Shown here piece by piece: positions 5,600 through 52,225 of a stretch of 64,000 nucleotides of DNA (the first letter of the stretch is position 1; every line of letters begins with the position of its first letter). Under the pieces are notes generated by a model. That model did no database searches and was not told the DNA's origin. It saw only the letters and a program-made list of their open reading frames with translations. The position numbers and the translations under genes are program-made. This stretch comes from a bacterium (GTDB lineage Bacteria > Krumholzibacteriota > Krumholzibacteriia > G020349025), in NCBI GenBank assembly GCA_031362565.1, contig JANLSU010000050.1, forward strand, positions 1-64,000. Reading direction: 5' to 3'.

Positions 5600-6061
5600 T
5601 CAGGCTGCGTGGTCGCGGAGGTAGTCGAGGCTTCCTGGCAGGTCGCGGATGAGCCGGAGAAACATGTCCATCGCCGCTGTCTGAACGTTGCGTCCCGACT
5701 CCCATCTCGACACCGTATTGGCACCGAGTCTCAAGAGATGCGCGAGACCCGCCTGCGTCAACGTGAAGTGCTCTCGGATCGCCCGGATCTCATCGGCCGA
5801 CAGGAGTCCATGTTTCTTCCGATAGATCGCGATCGCGTCTTCGTGGAGCCGCTTCGCTTCCTGAAATCGAAGAACGACCTCGCCGCACTTCGAACACCGG
5901 AGGTGAGACGCCGACGGGACGCTGACCTCTTCACCGTTCACGGGGAGTCGCAGCGATCGTCGCGCTTCCTTCATCATGGCGCCGCACGACGGGCATGCGT
6001 CGTTCGGTAGGATCCGTCCTCGGGTTGGCACGCTGTCAGGCCGCCCCTTGGTGTTTCTCAT
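5600..6061 (-). CDS. MqsA-family antitoxin (zinc ribbon + HTH)
   Basis: CPSCG...CSKCGE zinc ribbon; LTQAGLAHLLRLGANTVSRWESG HTH. Confidence 0.88.
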   Translation of the reverse strand: MRNTKGRPDSVPTRGRILPNDACPSCGAMMKEARRSLRLPVNGEEVSVPSASHLRCSKCGEVVLRFQEAKRLHEDAIAIYRKKHGLLSADEIRAIREHFTLTQAGLAHLLRLGANTVSRWESGRNVQTAAMDMFLRLIRDLPGSLDYLRDHAA

Positions 6062-6380
6062 CGCCACCACCTTCATCCTCATGCAGTGAAACGATCACAC
6101 ATTCGCCGCGAAGGATCAGCTTCAGGTACACCGTCTCATGGCCAATCTGGGGCTTGAATACGTACATCCATTCCCCGGTCGTCCTAGACCTATGCCGGCC
6201 GGCAAAGTCGCTTGCGATCAAACCTAGCAGGACCTGGCGCACGTCCTCCGGATCGAGCCCTGCCTCGAGTGCTGCCAGTTCTCGGCTCGCTTTGGCGGTC
6301 ATCCGAATCGTGCCTGCGCGTGCGCGGGCACAGATGCCGGCAAGGATTTTGGGTAGCCACGTCGACAAGTCGCCAGTCAA
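6036..6380 (-). CDS. MqsR-like toxin (start uncertain)
   Basis: Upstream of and overlapping mqsA-like gene; EWMYVFKP...YLKLIL...VIVSLHE. Confidence 0.7.
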   Translation of the reverse strand: MTGDLSTWLPKILAGICARARAGTIRMTAKASRELAALEAGLDPEDVRQVLLGLIASDFAGRHRSRTTGEWMYVFKPQIGHETVYLKLILRGECVIVSLHEDEGGGDEKHQGAA

Positions 6381-6746: not shown

Positions 6747-9053
6747 CTACCGTCGCAGCACGATCTTGCCGCGCTGGCGGTGGGTCTCGAATGTGACGTC
6801 GTAGATGTAGATGCCGGAACTCACGACGCGGCCTTCCGCGTCGCGGCCGTCCCAAGTGATATGCCCGCCGCTGCCCGCCGTGTACATTGTGAGCCGGCGC
6901 ACACGCGAGCCACGAACATCGTAGACATCGAGTTGCACGGTGCCGGCGTGTGGCGCCGCGAACTCGAGCAGCATCGCCCCGGGGCTCGGGTTCGCTGGCC
7001 GCCGCGTGATCTCGAAGCTGGCGTGCGCCGGAGCTGCCTCGGCCGAGTCCGGCGCGTCAGGTTCGATTCGCGCCGCCATCATCATGACCGGTGCCGTCGT
7101 CACGACGAGTTCCGGCGGCTGGCTGCCCTCGGAGGAACTGAAGTAGACACTGTGCGCGTCGACGCTCTTGATGGCGAACGAATAGGTGCCATTGCCACCG
7201 ACCGCCGCCGTCACGTCCAACTCGACCCAAGTCTTGACCTTGACGGCGCCCAGAGCGGCGAGCGCCGGCGCCGCGATATCCGGCGCATTGTTCCAGCTGA
7301 GCACGCTTTGCGTCCAATCCATCGTCGAGGCACGAAGCGTGTTGGCGACGGGATAAACGCTCCCCGCGTTCACGTCCTCATCGACGACGTAAAGGCGCAG
7401 CTTGGCGTTCGTGACGTTGCCCGTGAGGCCCGCCAGGGTGAATTTGAAATAGCTCCGGTACTCGGGGCTGCCCGAGCTTCGAACTCGTAGGCTGGTCTCG
7501 GATCCGTAGTTCGTCGCCATGTTCGTCGATTCCACACTCGCGTCGTGCACCGCTCGGAACGTCACCACCGGCGACGCGCCGCCGCCATCGTCATTCAAGA
7601 TCATGCCGTCGCCGCGGCTCTTGCCGATCGTGCCACCCGACGCGCTATAGAGCTCGACGACGAACGTCTCGTCCGGCTCGATCTGCGTGTCGCCATTGAT
7701 GGTGACGAGAACCTGCTGGGACGTCGTCGTACCGGAGAATTTCAGCGTCCCCTTGCTCGAAGCGAAGTCGCCGCCCGACGTCGCCGTACCTGCCAAAGTC
7801 CGATACTTGACCGATACGGATTTCCCGGTCGCGCCGGCCAAGGTGACGTCGAAGGCCAGAGTCTTGGTGCCGCTGTCGCCTTCCTGGATGGCGGCATTCG
7901 CAATCGACAAGACGCTCGAAGCCACGACGCCCTTCACATCGACCTGCAAATCATCACTCGTTTGCAATGCGCCGTCGCTGACCGTAAGTCGGAGCACGTA
8001 CAAGCCTGGCAGGTTGAAGCTGACGTTCGTGCCGAGCGCCTGCGGGTCCGCGAACTGCGCCATCCCGGGCCCACTCACTTGGCTCCAAAGCGGCGACAGA
8101 TGCGCCGGCGCCGGATCGCCGTCGTCCGCACTCGACCCCTGCAGCGCCAACGGCGCGGGCAGCGTGACCGTCCCATCGTCTCCAGCAATGACGCACGGCG
8201 GCATGTTGAAGATGGCGGGGCTTCCCGCCCACGGTTTGCGGCGCAGTTGGAACGGATTCGTGGGATCCATGGAAACCGTCACCTGGAGCGGATCTTCCTC
8301 GACTCCAAGGTTAACCTGCACGCGCCGCAGGTTGGGCTCGGACCACGGGCGGTCGTCCTTCCACGAATGGCCGTCGCCGTGGATGTACATCACTGGTTTG
8401 CCGAAGGCGGCGCTCGCGGTTCGGAAGCGCGTGAAGAAAGGCTGGTGCTGGCTCGAGCCCGGACCTGCGTGTCCCATGACGACGGCGGCTCGCACTTCTC
8501 CCTTGCGCGCCGAAAACTGTTGCTCGACCCAGGCCGCATCCTGTCCGAGGCGGGTCGTCCATTCGCTGCTGCTTTGAACGGCTCCACCGACAATATTGAT
8601 GCCGATGAAGAGCACGCCCTTGTCGACGAAGGCGAAATTCTCATGGCGCGCGTCCTGATGTTCGACGGGCAGCGTGTGGCAAAAATGCGATTCGTAGGAA
8701 TCGAAGTAGCGTTTCCAATACGTCCAGGCTTGGCTCGGACTCGCGCAGTCGTTCCACTCGTTGTCACCCGGCAGCACGAAAGTCGGAACCGCAAAGCCCT
8801 GAAGCAGGGTCGCGATTTCTTGGTACACCGATTCGGTGCACGCCGAAGTGCCGTTCTTGAAATCCCCGACGTGCACCAGGAATTCGGAGGGACTGTACCG
8901 GTTGTGATCGAGGATCTGGCGGCGAAGAGTCGGGATCTCGGACGACGAATACGGGATGTCGCCGGTAATCGAAAAGGTCACCGGTTGGGCCTGGGCCCGG
9001 GCGAGGCAGGGGACGATGAGACAAATTGTCAAAAGGCACGCCGCGTTGCGCAT
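6747..9053 (-). CDS. Secreted multidomain metallophosphoesterase (+PKD-like, Calx-beta, DNRLRE/CBM96-like, FlgD-Ig/T9SS-like C-terminal domain)
   Basis: Signal peptide; GD..HVGD..PGDNEW..HGDGH; EGDSG..TAT..D..DTQIEPDETF Calx-beta; VYDVRGSRVRRL..WDGRD..G..VSSGIY. Confidence 0.85.
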   Translation of the reverse strand: MRNAACLLTICLIVPCLARAQAQPVTFSITGDIPYSSSEIPTLRRQILDHNRYSPSEFLVHVGDFKNGTSACTESVYQEIATLLQGFAVPTFVLPGDNEWNDCASPSQAWTYWKRYFDSYESHFCHTLPVEHQDARHENFAFVDKGVLFIGINIVGGAVQSSSEWTTRLGQDAAWVEQQFSARKGEVRAAVVMGHAGPGSSQHQPFFTRFRTASAAFGKPVMYIHGDGHSWKDDRPWSEPNLRRVQVNLGVEEDPLQVTVSMDPTNPFQLRRKPWAGSPAIFNMPPCVIAGDDGTVTLPAPLALQGSSADDGDPAPAHLSPLWSQVSGPGMAQFADPQALGTNVSFNLPGLYVLRLTVSDGALQTSDDLQVDVKGVVASSVLSIANAAIQEGDSGTKTLAFDVTLAGATGKSVSVKYRTLAGTATSGGDFASSKGTLKFSGTTTSQQVLVTINGDTQIEPDETFVVELYSASGGTIGKSRGDGMILNDDGGGASPVVTFRAVHDASVESTNMATNYGSETSLRVRSSGSPEYRSYFKFTLAGLTGNVTNAKLRLYVVDEDVNAGSVYPVANTLRASTMDWTQSVLSWNNAPDIAAPALAALGAVKVKTWVELDVTAAVGGNGTYSFAIKSVDAHSVYFSSSEGSQPPELVVTTAPVMMMAARIEPDAPDSAEAAPAHASFEITRRPANPSPGAMLLEFAAPHAGTVQLDVYDVRGSRVRRLTMYTAGSGGHITWDGRDAEGRVVSSGIYIYDVTFETHRQRGKIVLRR

Positions 9054-9209
9054 GAAATCAAGTCCCTCCATGGACATTAGCAGGCCTTTATTGTAGCAGG
9101 GGCGAGACACTCGAGCCAACCGGGAAACTTGCCGCTGCACCGATCGGTTGCTATAGTCCGCTTCCCTCGACCGACGCATCTCGTCACGCAGCATCGATGG
9201 GGGTTGGTC

Positions 9210-10985
9210 ATGCTTCGATCATCCAAGACACTTCGAGCGCACTTGTTTGCCGCCTTCCTACTGCTTCAGGCTGCGGCGGTTCTCGCCGTTGACTTGCAGG
9301 TCACGGGCGTCAGCCCACCGCGGAACGGCAGCGCGCCGGGCTCGACGACGGTCTCGATCACGTTCGATCGGGCGGTTTCCCCGGCCTCGATCACGGCCGC
9401 GAGCTTCCGGGTCTACGGGCGTTGGAGCGGGCCAGTGGCGGGCACCTATAGCCTGACGAACAGCAACCGCACGGTCACCTTTACACGCGCCCGCCCGTTC
9501 TCGGCCGGTGAGCTGGTTCTTGTCAATTTGTCACACGGCATCCTGGCCGCGGATCTGAGCCCGCTTCGCCCGGCGGGCTACGCCTATTCTTTTGGAATTG
9601 TGACCAAGCATGCGGCACTCACGTACCAGAACATCGGCGCGCTGTCGAATCGCATCAACAACGCCCAAACTCGCATCTACGGCGCTTCGGCGTCGGATCT
9701 GAATGAAGACGGCTATCTCGACCTCACAACCGTGAATGAAGTCAGCGCCGACGTGCGGGTGGCGCTCAACCTGGGTGCCGGGCCCACCCCTTTCGGGAGT
9801 TTCCTGGCGCCCCAGGGGATCGGCGACGAAGCGAGTCCGAACGAGCCGGCCGATTTCAATAACGACGGGCACGCCGACCTGTGCCTCGCGGCCGTGAACA
9901 GCAACAGCGTTTGGGTGCTACTGGGGGCGGGCAATGGCACCTTCAGTTCAATCACGGAGATTTCGGTCGGCTCGACGCCGCACGGGGTCGCAGTGTTGGA
10001 CGTTGATGGGGACGGGGATCCGGATATCGTCAACTCGAACAACGGCAGCAACAATCTGTCGCTCCTGGTCAACAACGGCTCGGGAAGTTTCGCACCATCG
10101 GTGTTCTTCAACGGCAACGTCACAGGGGAATATGGCGTCGTAGCCGGCGACATGAACAGCGACGGCATCATGGACGTCGTGGTGGGCGCCCGCGAGGGTC
10201 AACAGATCGTCACCATGCTCGGCAACGGCAACGGCACGTTCACGGCGGCTGGAACGGCGCAGAGTTCCGGTGGCCAGACGTGGGTCGTCGCGTTGGGCGA
10301 CTTGAACACTGACGGTGTTCTGGATGCGACGGTCGCGAACAGCCAGAGCGGCAACGGCGCCGTGCTTCTCGGGACCGGCACCGGCACGTTTGGGCTACCC
10401 AGCATCATGACGACGAGCGCCCACACGGTTGCAACCGATCTCGGCGACTTGGACGGCGACGGCGACCTCGACTGGGTGCTCTCGAGCTTCGGGGGCGGTT
10501 TCTGGCGCATCTACACGAACAATGGCAGCGGGGTGTTCACCTTCAACCAGCAGATCAATGCGCCGTCGAACCCGTCGTGTGCGGTCCTGATCGACTTCGA
10601 CAACGACCAGGATCTGGATCTGGTCCTGACGGATGAAATCGCCGATGTGCTCGTCCTCGAGAAGAACGTCGGCGCGACGTCGGATGCGGGCGACGCGGCG
10701 CCTCGCCGTGGCACGCCCCTGCTCACCAACACTCCCGAGCCCTTCCATCACGAGACGCAACTGCGTTTCCGCCTGCCGGCGAGCAGCGATGCGACGCTCC
10801 AGGTGTTCGATAGCAGCGGACGTGAAGTGTCGACGACTCGCGTTCGGGGTCTCCCGGCCGGTTGGAACTCATTTCGCTTCGAAGGCAAGGGGGCTGGCGG
10901 GCAGCCGCTGCCGAGCGGCGTCTATTATTACAAGATCGTCACACCCGGAGGCGTGCTGTCCGATCGCATGATTCTTGTGCGCTGA
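9210..10985 (+). CDS. Secreted FG-GAP/VCBS repeat protein with N-terminal Ig-like and C-terminal FlgD-Ig/T9SS-like domain
   Basis: Seven DxNxDGxxD-type repeats; VFDSSGREV..LPSGVYYY. Confidence 0.88.
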   Translation: MLRSSKTLRAHLFAAFLLLQAAAVLAVDLQVTGVSPPRNGSAPGSTTVSITFDRAVSPASITAASFRVYGRWSGPVAGTYSLTNSNRTVTFTRARPFSAGELVLVNLSHGILAADLSPLRPAGYAYSFGIVTKHAALTYQNIGALSNRINNAQTRIYGASASDLNEDGYLDLTTVNEVSADVRVALNLGAGPTPFGSFLAPQGIGDEASPNEPADFNNDGHADLCLAAVNSNSVWVLLGAGNGTFSSITEISVGSTPHGVAVLDVDGDGDPDIVNSNNGSNNLSLLVNNGSGSFAPSVFFNGNVTGEYGVVAGDMNSDGIMDVVVGAREGQQIVTMLGNGNGTFTAAGTAQSSGGQTWVVALGDLNTDGVLDATVANSQSGNGAVLLGTGTGTFGLPSIMTTSAHTVATDLGDLDGDGDLDWVLSSFGGGFWRIYTNNGSGVFTFNQQINAPSNPSCAVLIDFDNDQDLDLVLTDEIADVLVLEKNVGATSDAGDAAPRRGTPLLTNTPEPFHHETQLRFRLPASSDATLQVFDSSGREVSTTRVRGLPAGWNSFRFEGKGAGGQPLPSGVYYYKIVTPGGVLSDRMILVR

Positions 10986-12780: not shown

Positions 12781-13533
12781 ATGATCCGTCGTGACTCGTT
12801 TAGCATCGCACCCATCGCCGCGTCCTTGCTCGCCGCAGCGCTCGCCGGACCCGCGAGTGCTCAGGTCAGCATCCCGTCGCTCGCCGTTCCGGTGACCGAG
12901 AATTTCAACACCCTCGCCTTGACCGGCACGAGCAGCGCGTTGCCGACCGGCTGGGCATTGTCTGAAGGTGGCACGGGCGCTAACACCACCTACACCGCCG
13001 GCACCGGTAGCGGCACGGCCGGCGACACCTACAGCTTCGGCGCGGCAGCCAACACCGAACGCGCCTTCGGCGGCTTGCAGAGCGGCACATTGATTCCGAC
13101 GATTGGCGCCGCCTTCAAGAACAACACCGGCTCGACGATTACGAGCTTGACGATCGCGTACACCGGCGAACAGTGGCGTGTGGGCGCCGCGTCGCGCGTC
13201 GATCGGCTCGACTTCCAGTACAGCTTGGATGCGACGAGCCTGACGACCGGCACCTGGACCGACCGCGATCCGCTCGACTTCACGGCACCCATCACCGGGC
13301 CGACACTCGGCTTGCTCGACGGCAACCTGGCCGCGAACCGCACCGGCATCACGAATTCGATCGGCGGGCTTAGCATCGCGAACACCGCCGTGTTCTGGAT
13401 TCGCTGGAACGATTTCAACGGCACGGGTGCGGACGACGGCCTCGGCGTCGACGATTTCTCGATCACCGCGAGCGGCGGCCCCGTCGCGGTCGAGGCGCGT
13501 GCCTGGACGGCGATCAAGTCCTTCTATCGGTAA
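12781..13533 (+). CDS. Secreted hypothetical protein with C-terminal WxxIKxxYR motif
   Basis: Signal peptide ending ASA-Q; ends PVAVEARAWTAIKSFYR; AAGGAG RBS. Confidence 0.85.
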   Translation: MIRRDSFSIAPIAASLLAAALAGPASAQVSIPSLAVPVTENFNTLALTGTSSALPTGWALSEGGTGANTTYTAGTGSGTAGDTYSFGAAANTERAFGGLQSGTLIPTIGAAFKNNTGSTITSLTIAYTGEQWRVGAASRVDRLDFQYSLDATSLTTGTWTDRDPLDFTAPITGPTLGLLDGNLAANRTGITNSIGGLSIANTAVFWIRWNDFNGTGADDGLGVDDFSITASGGPVAVEARAWTAIKSFYR

Positions 13534-21601: not shown

Positions 21602-23544
21602 GTGCGCCAGGCAAAGCCTGAGAAGGGGGAAGGCGTGAGCGGGTCGCCGCTCACCGGAAACTCTTCATCGTGACCCAGTGAGAATTTGAAAGCTCACCCG
21701 GCAAAGCTGGCCAGCAGCCGGAACCGAGTGTTGCGTGGTCTCGGGGTGACCCGAGCTGCGAAGCGTACACAGGGAGCAAGCGGGCCGTGTGATTGAGCCT
21801 CGAAAACGGAATCATTGCGGGAGCCGACGTATTACTCGTCGCGGAAGGCAGCATGAACATCCCGAATGGCAAGGGATGTCTCGTCCCGCCGGGGTCGTAG
21901 AGCAGGGCACGTTTGCATAGGGGCCACTCAGGAACCTGGGAGATCCGACGGTTTCTCGTCGAGTGATGAGTACGCACGTACGACGCAAGGAAGGACGTGC
22001 GGATGGGCCGCCGGAAGTCAGAGCACCTGCACAGTACCGCAGAAGCGGGGGAACCGACCCGAGGGACCCCGTGGAGGGAAGGCGGGTGTCGGATTACGGG
22101 ATCGTTGGAGGGAAAGGCGAATGGGAACACTGAATCCCCGCGACGTCTCGACATCACTTCAACGAATAGCGGATCTGGCGCGGAAGGCGCCGGAGCGCTC
22201 GTTCATGAGCATCCACCACGTGATCGATGTGGATCTACTGCGGGAAGCGTATCGGCGGACACGCAAGGATGGAGCAGTTGGTGTGGACCAGCAGACAGCG
22301 GCAGAGTACGCAGCAAATCTGGAGGAGAATCTCCCGTCGCTGCGTGACCGCCTGAAGCTTGGCACCTACTACGCGCCTCCGGTGCGTCGCGTCGACATCC
22401 CAAAGGGAGACGGATCGCAGACACGGCCGATTGGAATTCCGACCTTTGAAGACAAGGTGCTTCAACGGGCGGTGGCGATGGTACTGGAAGAAATCTACGA
22501 GCAGGACTTTATGGATTGCTCGTACGGCTTCCGCCGTGGCCGGTCAGCGCATCAAGCGCTGGACACAATCTTCCATTCGATGATGCAAATGCGCGGCGGC
22601 TACGTGATTGAGCTCGACATCGAGAAGTTTTTCGATCGGCTCGATCACGGACATCTCCGGACCTTTCTCGACCGGAGGGTGTGTGACGGGGTGATCCGTC
22701 GCGCGATCGACAAGTGGCTGAAGGCCGGCGTACTCACAGAGGGCCGACTGACGCACTCTCGACAAGGGACACCGCAAGGTGGAGTGATCTCTCCGCTTCT
22801 TGCCAATATCTATCTGCATGAGGTCTTCGATCGATGGTTTCAGGAGCAGATCGCACCACAACTACGAGGTCGCTCGTTTATGGTGCGCTACGCCGATGAT
22901 GCTATCCTGGTGTTTTCGTCCGAGGAGGACGCTCGCCGCGTGTTCGAAGTCTTGCCAAAGCGGTTTGCTCGCTTCGGTCTGACCCTGCACCCGGAAAAGA
23001 CCCGCCTCGTCCAATTCACCTGCCCGCCCTATCTGCGAATGCAACGGCTTCCGCAGAAAGAAGGCGGACCGGACACCTTCGACTTTCTCGGCTTCACCCA
23101 CTACTGGGGCAAGTCCAGGAAAGGTCGATGGATCGTGCGCAAGAAGACGATCAGAGATCGTCTCGTCCGCTTCCTGCGGCGGATCGCGCAGTGGTGCCGA
23201 CGATATCGGCATGAGAAGATCGCGTGGCAACACGCGCATCTTGTCCGCGTGATCCGAGGTCACGATGCCTACTACGCTGTGACAGGTAACGAACGCCAGC
23301 TTGATCGGCTTCGTCAACTCGTGCATCGTATCTGGCAGAAATGGCTCTCACGTCGCTCGGAATCGACGCCCATGTCATGGGCACGTTTCAACCGCCTGCT
23401 CGCGCGATACCCACTTCCGAAGGTGCGAGTCGTACACTCGCTCTATCATGCAGCGAAACCGTAATCTGAGGAGCCGGATGCGTCAATCGCGCACGTCCGG
23501 ATCTGTGGGGGGCGGCCGGTCGCGAGACCGGTCGCTATCCCGAT
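21602..23544 (+). mobile_element. Complete group II intron (IIB-like RNA, En-less IEP)
   Basis: 5' GTGCG; EBS1 ACTCGT (21834-39) complementary to IBS1 ACGAGT (21596-601); domain V GAGCCGGATGCG..CGCACGTCCGGATC; domain VI ending CTATCCCGAT. Confidence 0.93.
22121..23464 (+). CDS. ltrA: Group II intron reverse transcriptase/maturase
   Basis: IPKGDG..RPIGIPT..DKVLQ, SYGFR, DIEKFFD, GTPQGGVISPLLANIYL, RYADD, FDFLGF; no endonuclease domain. Confidence 0.95.
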   Translation: MGTLNPRDVSTSLQRIADLARKAPERSFMSIHHVIDVDLLREAYRRTRKDGAVGVDQQTAAEYAANLEENLPSLRDRLKLGTYYAPPVRRVDIPKGDGSQTRPIGIPTFEDKVLQRAVAMVLEEIYEQDFMDCSYGFRRGRSAHQALDTIFHSMMQMRGGYVIELDIEKFFDRLDHGHLRTFLDRRVCDGVIRRAIDKWLKAGVLTEGRLTHSRQGTPQGGVISPLLANIYLHEVFDRWFQEQIAPQLRGRSFMVRYADDAILVFSSEEDARRVFEVLPKRFARFGLTLHPEKTRLVQFTCPPYLRMQRLPQKEGGPDTFDFLGFTHYWGKSRKGRWIVRKKTIRDRLVRFLRRIAQWCRRYRHEKIAWQHAHLVRVIRGHDAYYAVTGNERQLDRLRQLVHRIWQKWLSRRSESTPMSWARFNRLLARYPLPKVRVVHSLYHAAKP

Positions 23545-24715: not shown

Positions 24716-24858
24716 GGCGTCGACTCCACGAGGAGTATACCAGTGTCGAAGCACGCGGCAAACCATGAGCCGCCGGCCGATTCATCGACCGCCAACAGAA
24801 CGGCACGCTGGGCTATACTTCAGGTCGCGCTTTCTCATCTTTGGGGGGACATCTCGCC

Positions 24859-27800
24859 ATGGCGCCCAACCATCCGCACGGATCCCGATCCCGATCCCGA
24901 TCCCGATCCCGGTGGCCCGGCGGGCTAGCACTCGTCGCGTCCAGCGTCCTGAACACCGGACTCGTGTCGCCGGCCGCGGCGCGGCAGATCGAAACGACCC
25001 TGCCCGCCAGAACGACCACGACCTCCGTCCCTGTCGGCTCTGATGTCGTAGGTTCCGCGGCTGCCGCCGCCGGCTCCGCCATCCTGGGTTCCGCCGCTGC
25101 CGCCGTCCGTTCGGGTGGCGGCCTCCTGGGTGGTTCCGAGGGCGCCCTCTATACATTCGTTGTGCCCGACGGTGAGGTCGCCACGGCAGTGCGGTCGCTC
25201 GATCCAGGCACGGCTGTCGAGCTCGTGGGGACTGCGACCTGGCGCGGCGCGGCGCTGGCGATCGTGCGCGCCACTGGCCGCGACGTCACTGGCCCGGGCG
25301 CCACCGGCCCCGGCGCCGCGTTGGACGCCTTCGGGCAGCGCGTCGTGATCGAGACCGCCATGGCACCTGGTGCGCCTGCCCCTGGGACTGGGGCCGCCGC
25401 CGGCGACGCCATCCGCCGCCTGCGCCCGGACCCCGCCGGCGAGCAGGCCGAGCGCGCCGAACTCCGAGCCCTCGTCGCCAACCCCGCGGACGTCGCGGTG
25501 TTTCACCCAGCGCTTCCACCGCGCGTTGCCAAAGCCACTCCGAGTCGATTCCGGCCGTCCAGCTACCCCGACCTCGAGGGCAGCCCGGTTCGCTATCTCA
25601 TCGTGACCGACGCGGCGTTCGTCGCGGATTTCCAAACTCTTGCCGATTGGAAGACACGCCGTGGCTTTCCGGCGCAGGTGCGGACCCTCGACTGGGTCGT
25701 AGCGCACGCTCGGCACGGCAGCGACCTGGCTGAAACCATTCGGAATTTCTTGCAGGACGCATACGCACTTTGGGGCGTGGACTACGTGCTCTTGGGCGGC
25801 GATACCGACCGCATTCCAGCCCGCATCGCGACCTCCGGCGTCCCCGGCACGGCGACGCCTGTCCCGACGGATCTCTACTACGCCTGTCTCGACGGGACGT
25901 GGAACGCCAACCGCAACGGCATCTGGGCGGAGCCCGCGACCGGCGCCAACAACCTCGGCGACCAAGCGGATCTTTACGCCGAACTCTTCGTGGCGCGTGC
26001 CCCCGTGCACTCCGGCACCGAAGTGCAGAATTTCGTCCAGAAAACGATTCGCTACGAGACCCCCATCGACACCGCGTATCAAAATCAGATGCTGTTACTT
26101 GGCGAGGTCCTCTCGCCGGCCGACTACGACAGCCTGCAGTCCATCACTCTCGACGGCGCGGCGCTCTCGGAGCAGGTTCGCATCAACAATGTGCCGGGAA
26201 CCCAGGCCATCACGCGCCAATACGAAACGGCATTTCTCTATCCGGGCTCGACGAAAATCACCAAAGCCGCGTCTCTCGCCGCCATGAATGCCGGCACGAA
26301 CTTCGTCAATCACATCGGCCACGGATTCCGTTACAACATGTCGGTCGGCAACGCGAGCATCGTGAATGCCGACGCCGATGCGATGACCAACGGCAACCGG
26401 ACTTTTATTCTTTATTTGCTCAACTGCACTGCACTCGCATATGACAGCAATTCGCTGGGCGAACGCTTTTTGCTCGCACCCAGCGGCGGGGCAGCAGGCG
26501 TCATCGGCGCGAGCCGCGAGGCCTACCCGTCGACGTCGATCGCCTACAACCAAGCGTTCTACGATCAACTTTTCGCGCAGGGGAATACGGCGCTCGCCAC
26601 CGCGTTCTCGAACGCCCGGCTCGGACGCACTGTATTCACGTTCTTCGACACCCAAGACCGCTGGACGCATTTCATCGACAACGTGCTGGGGGATCCGGCC
26701 CTCACCGTCTACACGGGCCCGGCGCTGGCCCCGCAAGTGACGCATCCGGCGACGATCGCGCTCGGCACGACCAGCGTCGCGGTGCACGTCGATGCAGCGT
26801 CCGTGCCGGTCGCCGGCGCGCTGGTTTGTCTCTGGAAGGGCGACGAGGCGTATGCGACCGGAACGACCGACGGTTCCGGCGATATCACGCTCGACCTGCG
26901 CGCCGACACGCAGGGCAGCGTCCTCGTCACGGTGTCGCAGCGCAACCTCCGCACCTATCTCGGCACGATCGCCGTCGGCGCCTCCGCACCGGCTCACCCG
27001 CGCATCGCGTCCGCGACAATCATCGACGACGGATCGAACGGTTCAGTCGGCAACGGTGACGGCGAGGCCGATGCCGGCGAGACGGTGGGCCTCGACGTCC
27101 ACATCGCCAACGCCGGCGGCGCGTCGATCACGGCGCGCGCCCGGCTCGTGTCGGGGCTCCTGCAAGCGGTCGCGCTCCAGGATTCCGTCGAACTAGGCGT
27201 CCTCGCGCCGTCCGCGACGCCAACCGCGATCGCACACTTCCTCGTGCATCTCGACCCGGCAATCGCCGACCAGACCACCGTGCCGTTCACGGTGCAGTTC
27301 CGCGATCAATCGGCAACATCGTTCGGATCCGAAGCGCTGCCCAAGGTCATTCACGCCCCACGCCTCGAAGTCGTCGAGGTTTTGCCGGCCAGTGCGGCCG
27401 GTACCACGACATTCAATGTTGTCGTCAAGAACTTCGGCTCCGGTGCCGCAACGGCGCTCGCGGCAACGCTGACGAGCACGGACCCGGATGTGTCGATTGG
27501 ACAGGGCGCGGCCACCATCGCCGCCGCCGCGAGCTACGGAACCGGCTCGACATCGCCGGCGCTCGTCGTCACCGAAACCAACACCACGCAGCGCAACCGG
27601 CTGCACCTGGCGCTGGTGGATGGCTTCGGGCGCAGCACGCCTTTCGACTTCGATCTGCGCGGTCCGGGAACAGCGTCGAAACCCGTCGCCGATGCGAGCC
27701 AGGGCCCGACCGTCATGCGCCTCACCTGGAGCACCTCCGCCGATGCGGATCTACTCGGTTATCACGTCTACCGGCGCCTGTCGGGGATCGGCACGTTGGT

Positions 27801-29556
27801 GCGCGTCAGCACCGACGTCGTGCATCAATCCTATGTTCTGGACACGGGCCTCGCGCCCAGCACGCGCTACGATTGGGCGGTTGCGGCGGTCGACAGCAGC
27901 GGCTTGGTCGGCGCCTTGTCGCCGAGCGTCACGGCGAGCACCAATCCACCGCAGCTCGCGGGCTGGCCGCTGCTTCTGCCGGCTGCTACATCCAGCAGTG
28001 TCGCGATCGGCGACATCGACGGCGATGGCAGCCGCGAGATCCTGGTGGGCGACGAAGGCGTCTACGCCTGGCATTCGAACGGCGTCGAAATGCAGGATGG
28101 TGACAACGATGCCAGCACCTGGGGCGCGCTGACGAATGACCCGGCAGTCGTCACCGGTTGCATCGCGCTCGGCGAATTCGATCCGGCGCGGCCGGGTCTC
28201 GAAATCCTGCGCGCCAATTGGGCCGACAGCCGTGTCACTGTCCTTGATGGCCAAGGCAACATTCTGCCGGGCTGGCCGCGCCAGCCCGCGAACGGTGCAC
28301 CCGGCTACTGGGGCACGCCGACGGCCGCCGATCTGGACGGCGACGGACGCGCCGAGGCGCTCGTCGTCGGCAAGGACGGCCATTTGTACGGCTGGCACTT
28401 CGATGGCACACCGCTCGCGGGTGTGGACGGCACGCTCGCCATCGTCGGTGGTTTCACGCGCACGTCGCCGACCGTCGCCAACTTGGACGGCGATCCGCAG
28501 CTCGAAATCCTCGTCGCCGGCGCCGACGGTTTTCTGCGCGCTCTCAACCTGGACGGCTCCGTCGTCGTGACATCAGGGTCGGCATGGCCCGTGAATCTCG
28601 GCGGCCCGAGTCTGTCGTCACCGGCAGTCGCCGAGATCGACGGTAATCCGCGCACGACGGAAATCGTCGTGACGTCGGAAAACGATCGCGTGCACGTCAT
28701 CAGCCATCGTGGCCTCGAACTCACCGGTTGGCCCAAGACGTTGGTCGAGGATTCGCCGAGTTTCGGCCCGTCGCCGGCGCTCGGTGACCTGAACGGCGAT
28801 GGCCGGGCGGAAGTCGTCGTCGTTTCGAATCGGAATCCGGCGTCGCTCAGCACTCTTGTCGTCTATGACGGCGCGACCAGCACGGTGCTGCTCACGAAGC
28901 TGCTCAACAATAGCTCCGAGTCGTCGCCCATTCTGGCCGACGTCGACGGCAACGGTTCGGTGGATGTCGTGGTTGGTGGCGAGAGCGGTGTCATCAATGC
29001 CTGGAACCTCGCGGGCCAGCAGTTAGACGGCTTCCCGCTGACCGTCAACGATTTCGTGCGCAGTACGCCCGCTTACGCCGACGTCGATGGCGATGGCGGC
29101 GCCGATCTCGTCCTCGCGGGCTGGGACCGCAATCTCTATATCTGGGACTTGAGTGCGCCGTATGTCGCGGCCCGCGCGCCGTGGCCGACGTTCTGCCGGG
29201 ACGCGTCGCGCACCGGCAATGCCCTCGAGAAGCTGCCGACCGACAGCGGCGGCGGCGCCGTGCCGGCCGCCAACCCGCCGCGCTTCCGGGTGCTGCCCAA
29301 CGTACCGAATCCGTTCAATCCAAGCACCGAGTTGCGGTTCGAGCTGCCCATCGCCGGCGACACGGGCGTACGGATTTTCGATGCGCAGGGGCGCTTGGTG
29401 CGGACCCTCGTCCATGCAGTGCTTGCCGCCGGCGCGCACACCGTCGAGTGGAACGGCCGCGACGATGCGGGCCACACGCTGGCAAGCGGCATCTACTGGT
29501 CGCGCGTCGAATTCGCCGGCCAAGTGCGCATGCGCAAGCTGACGCTGCTCAAGTAA
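24859..29556 (+). CDS. Secreted C25 (gingipain-family) cysteine peptidase with FN3, FG-GAP repeats and FlgD-Ig/T9SS-like C-terminal domain
   Basis: YLIVT..LADWKTRRG..YVLLGGD..TDLYYACLD; NHIGHG and LNC dyad; LGDPAL; PNPFNPST..IFDAQGRLVRTL..WNGRD..LASGIY. Confidence 0.92.
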   Translation: MAPNHPHGSRSRSRSRSRWPGGLALVASSVLNTGLVSPAAARQIETTLPARTTTTSVPVGSDVVGSAAAAAGSAILGSAAAAVRSGGGLLGGSEGALYTFVVPDGEVATAVRSLDPGTAVELVGTATWRGAALAIVRATGRDVTGPGATGPGAALDAFGQRVVIETAMAPGAPAPGTGAAAGDAIRRLRPDPAGEQAERAELRALVANPADVAVFHPALPPRVAKATPSRFRPSSYPDLEGSPVRYLIVTDAAFVADFQTLADWKTRRGFPAQVRTLDWVVAHARHGSDLAETIRNFLQDAYALWGVDYVLLGGDTDRIPARIATSGVPGTATPVPTDLYYACLDGTWNANRNGIWAEPATGANNLGDQADLYAELFVARAPVHSGTEVQNFVQKTIRYETPIDTAYQNQMLLLGEVLSPADYDSLQSITLDGAALSEQVRINNVPGTQAITRQYETAFLYPGSTKITKAASLAAMNAGTNFVNHIGHGFRYNMSVGNASIVNADADAMTNGNRTFILYLLNCTALAYDSNSLGERFLLAPSGGAAGVIGASREAYPSTSIAYNQAFYDQLFAQGNTALATAFSNARLGRTVFTFFDTQDRWTHFIDNVLGDPALTVYTGPALAPQVTHPATIALGTTSVAVHVDAASVPVAGALVCLWKGDEAYATGTTDGSGDITLDLRADTQGSVLVTVSQRNLRTYLGTIAVGASAPAHPRIASATIIDDGSNGSVGNGDGEADAGETVGLDVHIANAGGASITARARLVSGLLQAVALQDSVELGVLAPSATPTAIAHFLVHLDPAIADQTTVPFTVQFRDQSATSFGSEALPKVIHAPRLEVVEVLPASAAGTTTFNVVVKNFGSGAATALAATLTSTDPDVSIGQGAATIAAAASYGTGSTSPALVVTETNTTQRNRLHLALVDGFGRSTPFDFDLRGPGTASKPVADASQGPTVMRLTWSTSADADLLGYHVYRRLSGIGTLVRVSTDVVHQSYVLDTGLAPSTRYDWAVAAVDSSGLVGALSPSVTASTNPPQLAGWPLLLPAATSSSVAIGDIDGDGSREILVGDEGVYAWHSNGVEMQDGDNDASTWGALTNDPAVVTGCIALGEFDPARPGLEILRANWADSRVTVLDGQGNILPGWPRQPANGAPGYWGTPTAADLDGDGRAEALVVGKDGHLYGWHFDGTPLAGVDGTLAIVGGFTRTSPTVANLDGDPQLEILVAGADGFLRALNLDGSVVVTSGSAWPVNLGGPSLSSPAVAEIDGNPRTTEIVVTSENDRVHVISHRGLELTGWPKTLVEDSPSFGPSPALGDLNGDGRAEVVVVSNRNPASLSTLVVYDGATSTVLLTKLLNNSSESSPILADVDGNGSVDVVVGGESGVINAWNLAGQQLDGFPLTVNDFVRSTPAYADVDGDGGADLVLAGWDRNLYIWDLSAPYVAARAPWPTFCRDASRTGNALEKLPTDSGGGAVPAANPPRFRVLPNVPNPFNPSTELRFELPIAGDTGVRIFDAQGRLVRTLVHAVLAAGAHTVEWNGRDDAGHTLASGIYWSRVEFAGQVRMRKLTLLK
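24881..24910 (+). repeat. (GATCCC)x5 hexamer microsatellite in the signal region of the C25 gene
   Basis: Five perfect copies encoding SR repeats. Confidence 0.9.
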
Positions 29557-31722: not shown

Positions 31723-33279
31723 TCAGAAACGACTGACAAGCAGGGCGCTGACTCCTTCAAACTCCAAGACTCGATAGCAAGTACCGGCCGTGCACGCGAG
31801 GCCGCCGCGCCGCCGTCCCCAGAAGAGCGACAAGCTGTGGCGATCGCGGCTCAAACTCGCTTGCAGGGAATCGAACGCGCGCCGTGCGACGTGTCCGGTG
31901 ACCGGATCCGTGGCTTCACCCGGATCATTGGTGGTCTGGCGGACGACGCCGATCGAGAAATGTTCGGCCCACGCATAGGTGAGAGATGCATAGCGGTCCT
32001 CGATGTCGACCGATTGGCGCGACGTGCGGCGCGTCGCCGACTGGCGCTCCAATTCGGCTTCGATGCTGTGCACGCCGGCGAACGGCATTTGCGTGAAGCC
32101 GCCGAACGTATCGCGGTCATGCGTGCTGTCGAAGTCGTCCGCGCCGCGGCCACCAAAGAGCGCCGCCGTACGGCCCCGCCAGTGGGTGGCGAGTTCGGCG
32201 TAGCGTTCGTGAAACCGCCGCGACCGGGCATTCTCGGCGCGGCTCCAATTGAGTGTCAGTTCCGCCCAGCCGCGGTAATCAACGCGCGTTTCGAACTGAT
32301 ACCCCTGTTCTTGCTGCGGCTCGACGACGTGGGTGACACGGTTCAAGAGGGCATACGAATGCTCGCGGACCAGCGGCGGCGGTTCGTTCGCGAAGAGCTG
32401 CAGCCCTTGGTAGTCTTTGTATTCGTAGGTCGCGCCCCATCGGAGTCCCGGCAACGGTTCATCGAGAGTCGCGGACTGCGACACGTACACGCCGTAGCCG
32501 CGCCCTTGGCTGGTGCGCGGGCTGGGGCGAGCGAAATGTCCCGACACGTGGGCGTACTCGCCATACGTATCAAGTGTCAAACGCGACCAGCCGGCGCGCT
32601 CGAGCCACGGGTCGGCGGTGAACTGCACGAAGCCGCCGCCGCCTTCGTGGGGCGCGCCGTCGATGCCATCGATACGCACGTAGTTGGCGCCGGCCCGCGT
32701 GCCGCGCACGATCTCGGCGCTCGCCGTCGCGCCGGCCACGTCGAGGACGCGCGGTTGGTCGGGCGGCAGAGCCTCGACACGCGGCTTGCCTTGCACGACC
32801 TCGACATTCCAGCGGGCGCCGCCCGTCCGCAGGCGCAGGCCATCGAGATCGCGCGAATCGGCGTATTGCGCCAATCCAATCTCTTCGCGAATCACCCCTG
32901 GGAGTTCAAAGGCACGCAGCAGCAGGCCGCGCCCGAAGAGGGTTTCGTAGTTGCCGACCGTAATCTCGAGGCCGTCGGCGGCCCAGGTGGCGTAGCGCCG
33001 CGAGAACTCCCGCAGTTGGAGAGTGCGCGGCTCGGAGACGTCATAGAACTCATACCGGAAACCGAGCCGCAACGCGGCGTGCGACCAGTCGAGCGTGAAA
33101 GCGTCGAAGGTCGAATAGCCCGTCGACGGTAGTCCGGGGTTCGGCGGTTGGAACGGCAGGTTGCCAGGCGGCTTGCCGGAGCGAATGAGGGCGATATTCG
33201 AAGCACTGATCTGCGCCTCCGCACCCGCCGCGAAGCAAGCGAGAGCGCCGACGATAGCAAAAATATGCGGCTTGTTCAC
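31723..33279 (-). CDS. DUF6029-like outer-membrane beta-barrel
   Basis: Signal peptide; ITVGNYETLFGRGLLLRAFE; C-terminal GRRRGGLACTAGTCYRVLEFEG..SRF. Confidence 0.75.
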   Translation of the reverse strand: MNKPHIFAIVGALACFAAGAEAQISASNIALIRSGKPPGNLPFQPPNPGLPSTGYSTFDAFTLDWSHAALRLGFRYEFYDVSEPRTLQLREFSRRYATWAADGLEITVGNYETLFGRGLLLRAFELPGVIREEIGLAQYADSRDLDGLRLRTGGARWNVEVVQGKPRVEALPPDQPRVLDVAGATASAEIVRGTRAGANYVRIDGIDGAPHEGGGGFVQFTADPWLERAGWSRLTLDTYGEYAHVSGHFARPSPRTSQGRGYGVYVSQSATLDEPLPGLRWGATYEYKDYQGLQLFANEPPPLVREHSYALLNRVTHVVEPQQEQGYQFETRVDYRGWAELTLNWSRAENARSRRFHERYAELATHWRGRTAALFGGRGADDFDSTHDRDTFGGFTQMPFAGVHSIEAELERQSATRRTSRQSVDIEDRYASLTYAWAEHFSIGVVRQTTNDPGEATDPVTGHVARRAFDSLQASLSRDRHSLSLFWGRRRGGLACTAGTCYRVLEFEGVSALLVSRF

Positions 33280-33827
33280 TGCTTCGGGGCCTTGTCCAGC
33301 AACGCCTCGGTTGCCTTGCGGAGGGCATCGATTTCGCCGGGCCGGTAGCCGAACGTCGTGCGCACGACCGTACCGTCCTTATCGAGGAGCAGCGTCGTCG
33401 GCAACGCCGGAATCTGCAACTGGCTCTGCGCCGCGCGGTTCAAATCGAGGACGATGGGAAAGTCGATGCCGTGGCTCTTGGCAAACGGTTTCACCTTCGG
33501 CGCGTTGCGCGGTCCGTCCTCGTTCACACCGACGATCTGCAAGCCGCGCGGCGCCAGGTCGGCATACAACTGCTGGAGTTCCGGCAAGGCGCTGATGCAC
33601 GGCTTGCACCAGGTCGCCCAGAAATCCAGGATGACCGGTCCCTTGCCGAGATACGACGCCAGTTCGACGCTACGCCCTTCGAGGTCTTGGAGCCGCAGGC
33701 CGGCGAGTGAGATTTTTTGCGCCGGCGCTTCCTGTCCAGCAGCCGGGCCAGCCAGAACTGCCGCGAGCAGGCAGGTGAGTGCCGCGGTTTGGGCGCGAGC
33801 GATGCGGCCACGCCGGTGCATTCTCAT
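33276..33827 (-). CDS. TlpA-family thiol:disulfide oxidoreductase
   Basis: DFWATWCKPC; LPTTLLLD; ATGA overlap with the upstream gene. Confidence 0.92.
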   Translation of the reverse strand: MRMHRRGRIARAQTAALTCLLAAVLAGPAAGQEAPAQKISLAGLRLQDLEGRSVELASYLGKGPVILDFWATWCKPCISALPELQQLYADLAPRGLQIVGVNEDGPRNAPKVKPFAKSHGIDFPIVLDLNRAAQSQLQIPALPTTLLLDKDGTVVRTTFGYRPGEIDALRKATEALLDKAPKQ

Positions 33828-34372
33828 CGATACAATCCCTTCACGGTCGACCATGTTGGTGTCGCAACCGGCGTCGGCAGGTTCGCGACGATGGCTGCCC
33901 GCACGTGCGCCTCGTTGAAGGCGAAGTCCAAGTCCGACTGGTAGCGCACGATGCCCTGCGGGTCGATGACGAAGTAGTTGTCACGGATCTGATTGTAATA
34001 CGCTGGGCCCACGAGATATCCACCCAGACGCAGGAACGGGAACGTGATGCCGGTGCGATCGACGAAGCTTTGGGCACCGGAGGCCGAGCCCTGCCACACG
34101 TCCACCGCCAAGGTTTGAAATCCAGGCCCCGCCTTATAGTCCTGCCAGACTTGCTCCACGACCGGACCGGCCGTGCGACACTCGCCTCAATTCCACCCAA
34201 ACAGCGCCAGCAGCACGACCTTGCCGCGGAGCGCGCTGAGCGTCCAGCTCTGACCGTTGGTGTCGGTGAGCGTGAAATCAGGCGCCGGGTCGCCGACCTG
34301 GAGCGCGGCGGCCGGCGATCCGAGCGCGCCACAGAGGGCGGCGGATGCGACAAGGAGGCGCAAGGAACGCAT
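33824..34372 (-). CDS. Exported redoxin/AhpC-TSA-like selenoprotein (UGEC motif; Sec at TGA 34187-34189), 182 aa
   Basis: ORFs 34187-34372 and 33824-34159 are in frame: ..APDFTLTD..LRGKVVLLALFGWN-TGA-GECRTAGP..; the TGA occupies the first Cys of CxxC; SECIS-like hairpin follows. Confidence 0.88.
34157..34175 (-). promoter_or_regulatory. Putative bacterial SECIS element
   Basis: 11 nt after TGA: CACGGCCG-GTC-CGGTCGTG, an 8-bp stem (one G-U pair) with G/U at the apex. Confidence 0.7.
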
Positions 34373-34508: not shown

Positions 34509-35348
34509 TCAGACCAGCGCCGCACTCACGCGGCGCTCCCGATCGGCGACGTGCGCCGCGATGAGCGCCAGGGCGTCGTGCGTGCCGGCGTCGATCGCCA
34601 CCCACTCGGCGCCTTGCGCGCGGGCGTCGGCCCCGAGCGCCAGCCCGAGCCCGGCGTCGAGACCGGAGTGCACCAGGACGAGCAGTGCCGGGTGCTCGGC
34701 GCGCAGTCCGCCGCGCACCACCTCGGGGGTCACATCGGACCCCAGGTCCACCACGCGCCAACCGCGTTCGGCGAGCGTCACGTGGACGAGGATCGCGGTG
34801 ACCGCGTCGGCGGTGCCGGGTGCCGCTGCCAGAAGCGCGGTCGCGGCTGCAACGCGAGTCGCCGCCGTTTGGTCGAGCAACGAACGCAACGTCGTGACGG
34901 CGCATTGCTCCGCCCGACGGCGCTTGAAGGCGTCGAAGTCGGGCGCCAGCGCCGTCGCAACGAGTTCGTGCCAGGCCCGCGCCACGAGGGCCGCGGATTC
35001 CGCCAAGCGCAGCCCATGACGGTGCAGGTCGAGGGCAATGCCGCGCGCCGTGGCGGTGTCACCGTTCCCCAAGGCGGTCGCGATGTGGGCGGCGAGAGCA
35101 GCGTGGTTCCCCTGCAGGAGCAGCAGTGCGAGTTCATCGATCTGAGCCGCGGGCCGCACTTCGGTGTCGACGATCGACAGCCCGAGTTTGCGGCCGGCCT
35201 CGGCGACATCCTGCACGCGGTACTTGCGATGCCCGCCCGGCGTGCGCACGCAGCGCAAGAGCCCGGCGTCGGTCCAACGTTTGACAGTGGAAATGCTGAC
35301 CCCGCAGACGCGGGCTAAATCGGCGGTCGAATAGAATCGATCCCTCAT
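34509..35348 (-). CDS. MerR/excisionase-type HTH regulator with degenerate cobalamin-binding-like domain
   Basis: STADLARVCGVSISTVKRW..RTPGGHRKY; GWRVVDLGSDVTPE. Confidence 0.8.
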   Translation of the reverse strand: MRDRFYSTADLARVCGVSISTVKRWTDAGLLRCVRTPGGHRKYRVQDVAEAGRKLGLSIVDTEVRPAAQIDELALLLLQGNHAALAAHIATALGNGDTATARGIALDLHRHGLRLAESAALVARAWHELVATALAPDFDAFKRRRAEQCAVTTLRSLLDQTAATRVAAATALLAAAPGTADAVTAILVHVTLAERGWRVVDLGSDVTPEVVRGGLRAEHPALLVLVHSGLDAGLGLALGADARAQGAEWVAIDAGTHDALALIAAHVADRERRVSAALV

Positions 35349-35553
35349 CCCTACCCATCCTCCCTGGCGCCGGTGCCGCCGACAGCGGATTCGAACGATC
35401 CGGTCGGTATGGGCTCCTTTGCGTTCGACTAGGCGCAGAGTAGCCGCATGGAGTCCAGGCGCGCAAGCGCCGGTTTCGCCGACCAAGGGCGGAAACGAGC
35501 GCGGCCCCGGAGTTCCGGGGCCGCACCGCACGTCCAAGCTGCGCCTTGGTGGG

Positions 35554-51863: not shown

Positions 51864-52225
51864 GGGGGCGAACGGTTTCGACGGGGTCACGGAATCCCTG
51901 GATGCGTGCCGAGGTCCACTGGCTCGTTAAACAAGTGGAAAAAGACAGCTGACAACCAGCTGCAACTCGCTGCCTAATCTGAACTAAGTTCAGATGTAGG
52001 TGCCGTCGGCTCCGTTCGCGCCCGCAGGGGTGGAGTACCGGCGTTATATTCTGCAGGCTGGCCGAAGGCTGCGTCCCGAAGCCGACGGCGAGATTTCAGG
52101 GACTGGTGACGTGGACATCCTGCTCGGTGGAGTTCCACGGCATGAGATCAAATACCGAGACACGCACGTAGACTCCTTGGAGGATGGATCTCCGGACGCG
52201 GGTTCGATTCCCGCCGCCTCCACCA
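51864..52225 (+). ncRNA. ssrA: tmRNA; tag (A)ADNQLQLAA* at 51948-51977
   Basis: 5' GGGGGCGAACGGTTTCGACGGG; 3' GACGCGGGTTCGATTCCCGCCGCCTCCACCA; tag ending LAA-stop. Confidence 0.97.

Follow-up and report, generated by a model that had tools for sequence, protein, structure and literature searches.

The window analysed here is a 64,000-nt stretch of contig JANLSU010000050.1 (positions 1 to 64,000, forward strand; GenBank assembly GCA_031362565.1, Krumholzibacteriota) with a G+C content of 65.7%. On its minus strand, positions 34372..33824 form one 182-codon frame with a lone in-frame TGA at codon 62 (34189..34187) and a TGA stop at 33826..33824. The gene appears to encode an exported ResA/TlpA-like thiol-disulfide oxidoreductase in which the nucleophilic active-site Cys is replaced by selenocysteine (Sec, U; U-G-E-C), the UGA being very probably decoded as Sec, and it ends in a short C-terminal tail that recurs on other proteins. 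The features of the gene are as follows.

33824..34372, minus strand: predicted selenoprotein gene, 182 codons and a TGA stop; exported ResA/TlpA-like redoxin with active site U62-G-E-C65 (translation, Pfam, AlphaFold2 model)
34187..34189, minus strand: candidate Sec codon, UGA-62; aligned with the first CxxC Cys of homologs, and TGA at the same codon in both genes of contig L001 (see below)
34304..34372, minus strand: probable Sec-type (secretory) signal peptide, residues 1-23, made up of MRSLR, a hydrophobic core and AAA, then L24
34157..34175, minus strand: candidate upper stem-loop of a bacterial selenocysteine insertion sequence (bSECIS), 8 bp with apical loop GUC, 11 nt past the UGA; folds
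33827..33877, minus strand: C-terminal tail PTPVATPTWSTVKGLYR, core W174-R182 (33853..33827)

Read through the TGA, the active site is ...LLALFGWN-U-GEC-RTAGP..., which puts the interruption at the first Cys position of the redoxin site (FGWN-U-GE-C). The read-through protein has 182 residues, begins with MRSLRLLVASAALCGALGSPAAA followed by LQVGDPAPDF, and ends ...LPTPVATPTWSTVKGLYR. The open reading frame (ORF) list splits the gene into pieces of 61 aa (34187..34372) and 111 aa (33824..34159), and the protein database holds the gene of this contig as the fragments P0123 (61 aa) and P0002 (111 aa). Automated annotation therefore missed the gene, as the original prediction had expected. That prediction had taken the two ORF fragments as one frame broken by a single TGA at the first Cys of a CxxC, and translation, coordinates and Pfam concur. 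The signal peptide it proposed is legible at the N-terminus, where a basic n-region, a hydrophobic core and A-A-A stand ahead of L24 (a direct reading by eye). Comparable N-termini are present in the homologs P0124, P0125 and P0005 and in the L001 genes.

Domain and fold are continuous across the TGA. Pfam AhpC-TSA (PF00578) matched residues 26-144 with an E value of 8.8e-15 and 55.2 bits (cutoff 26), and Redoxin (PF08534) scored 45.5 bits (cutoff 26.6), so that both domains known from Prx-like and Redoxin selenoproteins were found above cutoff. The AlphaFold2 model (61-sequence alignment, mean pLDDT 91.8, pTM 0.82) has a thioredoxin fold in which U62 directly precedes helix 63-79, placing the UxxC at the helix start. 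The top Foldseek match was Bacillus ResA (1su9; template modeling score 0.89 on the target, root-mean-square deviation 2.1, 28% identity), a putative disulfide isomerase of Bacteroides (2ls5) came next, and a PDB sequence search concurred in placing ResA/TlpA/CcmG-type entries best (1su9, 1st9, 1jfu). This continuity bears on the idea that the locus yields two small products independently, namely a secreted peptide of 61 aa and a cytoplasmic fragment of 111 aa started from the GTG at 34159. These are exactly the pieces that gene callers predict; however, the domain and the fold run on across the TGA, the 111-aa piece has neither active site nor signal peptide and yet bears a secretion-type tail, and full-length Cys forms exist. 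Two independent products are very improbable.

A search of representative proteins returned 17,484 proteins at E <= 0.001. The homolog set (n = 150) consisted of P0005, P0006 and 148 new entries from this search, of which the best 150 of 17,484 were listed. Aligned to the query, 138 of the 150 have Cys at both the U62 and the C65 position, with the signature FG[YWN]xCxxC. The remaining 12 comprise four fragments without the site, three A..C, and one each of W..C, C..T, C..N, D..S and G..C. The closest full-length Cys form, P0005, reads GWYCPRC at the active site, and P0005, P0161 and P0164 are full-length Cys forms bearing the same tail as the window protein. The Cys/TGA pairing for which an alignment of homologs had been proposed is thus found, in P0005 and across the 138 homologs with Cys.

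Relatives with TGA were sought in genome contigs by pattern scans. In the first scan, two peptide patterns specific to the subfamily matched 46 times, and none of the matches was a relative. The second used patterns from a 7-sequence alignment (a 13-sequence alignment was too diverse), and the relatives it gave were only from Krumholzibacteriota/Krumholzibacteriia metagenome-assembled genomes (MAGs) and one "uncultured bacterium," which suggests a Krumholzibacteriota-like origin of the window. Among them was L001, a contig of 5.6 kb from a Candidatus Krumholzibacteriia MAG, which carries two tandem paralogs of the window gene.

L001 275..835, plus strand: gene 1, Sec-redoxin paralog; TGA at 458-460, signal peptide, tail kept
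L001 1027..1587, plus strand: gene 2, Sec-redoxin paralog; TGA at 1204-1206, signal peptide, tail kept

Each paralog has a single in-frame TGA in the context GYG-U-VQC, ends ...TW[ST]xVKSLYRD, and is ~50% identical to the window protein. The TGA of the window gene and those of both L001 genes fall in one alignment column. Between the two paralogs, the ratio of nonsynonymous to synonymous substitution rates (dN/dS; Nei-Gojobori script) is ~0.30 upstream of the TGA and ~0.34 downstream, and therefore both halves have been under similar purifying selection since the duplication.

Fragmentary database entries break at the same place. P0124 (90% identity) and P0125 (84%) each have a length of exactly 61 aa and stop at ...FGYN, one residue before U, and P0003 (85% identity) and P0004 (79-80%) are C-terminal pieces that begin a few residues past the TGA site; P0125 and P0004 are each reported from a 1694-bp contig. 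The N-terminal piece retrieved 38 short fragments, of which 8 have exactly residue 61 as their last: P0123 of the window itself, five relatives of the G[YWH]x family (P0124, P0125, P0126, P0127 and P0128, all ending before codon 62) and two with other redoxin motifs. The remaining 30, from other redoxin families, run a few residues further. Six C-terminal fragments start at query residues 67-88 (P0003, P0004, P0169, P0186, P0276 and P0277), the last four of which, from the representative search, are C-terminal-only pieces with the same tail.

A pseudogene, in which an ordinary CxxC redoxin would carry a simple nonsense mutation or a sequencing error, was weighed against these data. TGA is one base from TGC and TGT, and no Sec machinery was seen in the window. 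Nevertheless, TGA stands at the same codon in two genes of an independent assembly, the same residue is the break point of at least five further fragment clusters, both sides of the TGA are conserved (dN/dS ~0.3), and the break sits precisely on the catalytic Cys. The original prediction would have had to yield to a simple nonsense mutation if homologs never carried TGA at this site; L001 genes 1 and 2 both carry it. The pseudogene reading is largely refuted already, and its probability is very low.

The original prediction also pointed to an 8-bp hairpin 11 nt downstream of the TGA, which was found at 34175..34157; a 3-bp lower extension covers 34180..34152. The bSECIS model, as given in the available part of a review of selenoproteins (PMC13188914), has an apical loop of 3-9 nt, an upper stem of 4-16 bp, a G in the first two loop positions, a UGA-loop spacing of 16-37 nt and a minimum free energy (MFE) of at most -7.5 kcal/mol. 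The window hairpin fits it (loop GUC, 8 bp, spacing 19 nt, -11.0 kcal/mol), as does that of L001 gene 2 (loop GGC, spacing 19 nt). A 7-bp core is shared by the window gene and both L001 genes in a consensus fold of the three sequences; two changes there, A-U to G-U and G-U to G-C, are compatible but one-sided. The model was also passed by 146 of 3000 random window positions (4.9%), so it is a weak criterion. Hairpins of at least 8 bp with a G early in the loop and a start 8-14 nt downstream were found at 1083 of 127,880 window positions (0.85%) and behind 20 of the 1258 TGA triplets in the window (1.6%). Folding-energy z-scores were -0.51 (59 nt) and -1.81 (45 nt; 12 of 200 shuffles as good) for the window and -2.11 for L001 gene 2. 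Against these controls the signal is moderate. By place and form, the hairpin is consistent with a SECIS and is taken as a candidate.

Several observations count against decoding of the UGA as Sec. The z-scores of the window hairpin, together with +0.48 for L001 gene 1, are ordinary for GC-rich sequence. In L001 gene 1, a 45-nt fold gives the same hairpin, but the MFE structure of the 63-nt implementation of the bSECIS model does not contain it; the check with a bacterial SECIS model, which the original prediction had proposed, was thus passed by the window gene and L001 gene 2, and by gene 1 in the 45-nt fold only. No double compensatory changes were seen in the hairpin, among only three sequences. 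The hairpin encodes the peptide AGPVVE, which is conserved in Cys forms too, so RNA-level conservation is inseparable from protein-level conservation. The breaks in the metagenomic fragments are known at the protein level only. Finally, none of selA, selB, selD and a tRNA-Sec was found within the 64-kb window or the contigs L001-L003 (L002 and L003 are further contigs that carry the tail), which is the part of the genomic sequence that the search covered. ARAGORN and Rfam gave tRNA-Arg, tRNA-Lys, tRNA-Val, a transfer-messenger RNA (tmRNA) and a piece of a group II intron in the window and no tRNA-Sec, and no Pfam match to SelA, SelB or SelD was obtained among the 43 + 10 window ORFs scanned. 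The tRNA directly downstream of the Sec genes in L001 is a tRNA-Pro (1712-1788), and only ordinary tRNAs are present there.

The missing machinery in the window and L001-L003 would also suit a selenium-free readthrough, in which near-cognate Cys or Trp insertion, or a lineage-specific sense reading of UGA in this context, gives a Cys or Trp protein. One distant homolog record has W at the Sec position: P0006 (38% identity, with a type IX secretion system [T9SS] domain) reads GYD-W-HVC. Its near-twin P0126 stops exactly there, after GYD, and the Trp is therefore probably a TGA translated under code 4 by a gene caller, which explains it better than readthrough does. Against readthrough, TGA is also the commonest stop in the window, where it closes 57 of the 92 ORFs whose base composition looks coding (a rough tally, shadow frames included), and it ends the selenoprotein gene itself. 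Coding-like sequence flanks an in-frame TGA at eleven junctions, of which only that of the selenoprotein lies at a redox-type motif. The remaining 10 look like borders of adjacent ORFs (not each checked by homology), and none of them stands out as a candidate for a further selenoprotein gene in the window. In addition, a UGA at a redox Cys together with Cys homologs is the defining signature of selenoproteins in the available text of PMC13188914. Selenium-free readthrough is unlikely. A general reassignment of TGA was rejected, given that the gene itself ends in TGA, that TGA is the commonest stop and that 10 of the 11 junctions look like ORF boundaries.

Decoding of UGA-62 as Sec is thus the preferred reading. 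The selenoenzyme proposed by the original prediction is supported by TGA at the same codon in two L001 genes, by the fragment breaks and by Cys pairing in 138 of 150 homologs, all of them comparisons of sequence.

As a selenoprotein, the protein is of an already-known kind, because UxxC is already listed in both of its Pfam families. The review cited above counts 119 prokaryotic selenoprotein families and subfamilies, and its Table 1 includes UxxC in PF00578, "Prx-like thiol:disulfide oxidoreductase," and in PF08534, "Redoxin family protein" (PMC13188914). As far as the available text goes, the Prx-like (UxxC/UxxU) and Redoxin family (UxxC) selenoproteins share with the window protein the Pfam domains, Sec at the first Cys, the existence of Cys homologs and a bSECIS-type hairpin directly downstream. 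Unlike those entries, compared by domain and motif only, the window subfamily has FG[YW]x-U-xx-C, a signal peptide and a W-x-x-[IV]-K-x-L-Y-R tail. The same text contains no mention of "Krumholz," "signal peptide" or "periplasm."

With ResA, TlpA and CcmG, the protein shares the fold, a CxxC-type site at the helix start and export; it differs in having Sec in place of the first Cys and no cytochrome c maturation genes adjacent. NCBIfam scores were far under the cutoffs (ResA PRK03147, 59.7 vs 170; TlpA NF047696, 35.7 vs 230), so the protein is not a ResA or TlpA equivalog. On the evidence of its model, it appears to resemble an extracytoplasmic ResA/TlpA-type thiol-disulfide oxidoreductase in working, yet it stands outside those named families. 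The ResA-like selenoprotein model NF041054 (WAxxUGC_long) is alike in having Sec at the active site of a ResA-like redoxin and differs in motif and length (354 model positions); it scored 31.6 bits vs a cutoff of 300, with partial model coverage. The FGYxCPxC redoxins with a T9SS domain (P0006 and most 250-270-aa matches) have the same catalytic domain (30-48% identity), site context and export. They are mostly Cys forms and end in a Por_Secre_tail/T9SS domain of ~80-100 aa (a size estimated from ~260 vs ~180 aa), whereas the window protein has a tail of ~10-18 aa.

The searches also returned dozens of entries of 44-107 aa (P0132-P0160) that end ...AFAFSGT or ...AFTGT at a redoxin active site. 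They look like the N-terminal halves of other Sec-containing peroxiredoxin-type genes, clipped by gene callers.

The original prediction described the C-terminus of the window protein as a sorting-like motif, and the motif is real, recurrent and strictly terminal. Its consensus is [ST]-W-[GST]-x-[IV]-K-x-L-Y-R-stop. In the redoxin subfamily, it takes the form ...LPxPVExx[ST]W[SGT]x[IV]KxLYR, with W174 and K178 invariant in 13 aligned members, and most other redoxin homologs of 250-270 aa have a T9SS-type domain in its place. AlphaFold2 modeled the tail as a short helix (174-180) with pLDDT ~78-80. The tail was also found on a second protein of the window and on unrelated proteins with signal peptides, as follows.

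Window 12781..13533, plus strand: second tail-bearing protein, 250 aa, signal peptide, ending ...AVEARAWTAIKSFYR (...ARAWTAIKSFYR)
L002 5220..6020: unrelated signal-peptide protein, ending ...EEMSWGRVKGLYR
L002 4226..5059: unrelated signal-peptide protein, ending ...EEMSFGAVKSLFR
L003 9227..10123: unrelated signal-peptide protein, ending ...TITWGRIKGLYR
L001 5133..5654, minus strand: unrelated signal-peptide protein, ending ...KTWGGVKELYR

A relaxed 8-residue tail pattern was counted in six-frame ORFs of >=80 aa over ~101 kb, and all 8 occurrences lie 1-2 residues from the stop, with none internal; one match each in L001, L002 and L003 was motif-selected. A degenerate 10-residue pattern matched 593 stretches in the genome contig collection, where a few tens would be expected by chance (a rough hand estimate).

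The passenger domain of the protein at 12781..13533 has 55-82% identity among the best 120 of 1531 matches and belongs to no Pfam or NCBIfam family. Sorted by regular expressions, the ends of these best 120 homologs comprise 40 T-W-G-x-[VIL]-K-x-L-Y-R, 14 PEP-CTERM-like, 12 T9SS-like and 54 other or partial C-termini. Database labels concur, with PF07589 and PF18962 flagged on several homologs and two of them named "PEP-CTERM sorting domain-containing protein" and "T9SS type A sorting domain-containing protein." The alternating C-termini suggest that this family behaves in the "choice-of-anchor" manner. Alternation of anchors on one passenger domain is the way in which earlier sorting systems were recognised.

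Like the tail, T9SS C-terminal domains (CTDs) and PEP-CTERM sit at the extreme end of proteins that bear signal peptides. PEP-CTERM has a transmembrane segment and a basic cluster, and the tail has neither: the ...TWSTVKGLYR end contains no hydrophobic stretch. No match to PF18962, PF13860 or TIGR04183 was found on the selenoprotein, and its tail spans ~10-18 aa. The shortest T9SS CTDs described in the available part of PMC11969387 are 43-55 aa (Prevotella intermedia), several-fold longer than the tail. No model in Pfam-A or NCBIfam 20.0 matched the tail, and a limited literature search found no description of it and no work that pairs Krumholzibacteriota with selenocysteine or T9SS.

The window also encodes large secreted proteins with an FlgD_ig-type (T9SS-like) CTD at 24769-29556 (plus strand), 9081-10985 (plus strand) and 6747-9218 (minus strand), so one genome has both the tail and T9SS-type endings. 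This FlgD_ig-type cargo includes a peptidase C25 (gingipain family) protein of 1595 aa that bears FG-GAP repeats.

Our best guess is that the tail may serve as a sorting or attachment signal that acts after export. More tentatively, and with some doubt, P-V-x(4-6)-[ST]-W-[GST]-x-[IV]-K-x-L-Y-R-stop might be a previously undescribed class of C-terminal sorting/attachment signal in Krumholzibacteriota-like bacteria, evolutionarily interchangeable with PEP-CTERM and T9SS domains, that would bring a Sec redox enzyme to the surface of the cell or to its outer membrane.

The neighboring genes on the same strand are listed below.

33276..33854, minus strand: second redoxin (TlpA/ResA-like, WATWCKPC, own signal peptide), downstream and overlapping; Pfam AhpC-TSA, E 5.1e-24
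31723..33279, minus strand: DUF6029 protein, next gene on the same strand; Pfam E 1.1e-19, ending ...LLVSRF
34509-35537, minus strand: MerR-family helix-turn-helix regulator, 137 bp upstream of the Sec-redoxin genes

Candidate ATG starts of the second redoxin lie at 33854, 33827 and 33821, and the start at 33827 forms an ATGA overlap with the stop of the selenoprotein gene, which suggests translational coupling of the two. The end of the DUF6029 protein looks like that of an outer-membrane beta-barrel. A glycosyltransferase is the third same-strand gene after the selenoprotein, behind the second redoxin and the DUF6029 protein. The MerR-type gene is a possible regulator of the Sec-redoxin operon. 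The operon is not conserved, since in L001 the tRNA-Pro and a sensor kinase come after the Sec genes instead. Elsewhere in the window, Rfam identified a group-II-D1D4-6 intron at 21689-21904 (plus strand, 149.5 bits), after which no clean single ORF was seen to ~23640 in the one frame tried. The tmRNA is at 51864-52225 (plus strand) with the tag peptide DNQLQLAA, and a protein with an MqsA-type antitoxin domain is at 5603-6094 (minus strand, Pfam E 8.4e-14).

Taken in order, the proposed mechanism would begin with recoding of UGA-62 by SelB and tRNA-Sec on the hairpin 11 nt downstream. The N-terminal signal peptide would take the protein across the inner membrane, where, in the modeled fold, Sec62 would stand at the N-terminal end of the active-site helix 63-79. 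Judging from the chemistry of the family, a selenenylsulfide would join Sec62 to Cys65 and cycle with the disulfides of substrates. The neighboring TlpA-like redoxin, putatively coupled in translation, and the DUF6029 protein probably act with the selenoprotein in one envelope redox pathway, to go by gene order alone. The tail, as a lineage-wide tag of secreted proteins, would probably direct localisation or attachment after export.

The selenoprotein gene and many of its relatives are each represented in public protein sets by two fragments without meaning of their own. Recognition of the split genes would add an exported Sec-redoxin subfamily and indicate selenocysteine use in a poorly known candidate phylum (Krumholzibacteriota-like). 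By itself the selenoprotein is ordinary; the tail is the more novel part and is worth following, as a lead to a protein-sorting route without a curated model, in which the tail replaces PEP-CTERM and T9SS domains on the same passenger.

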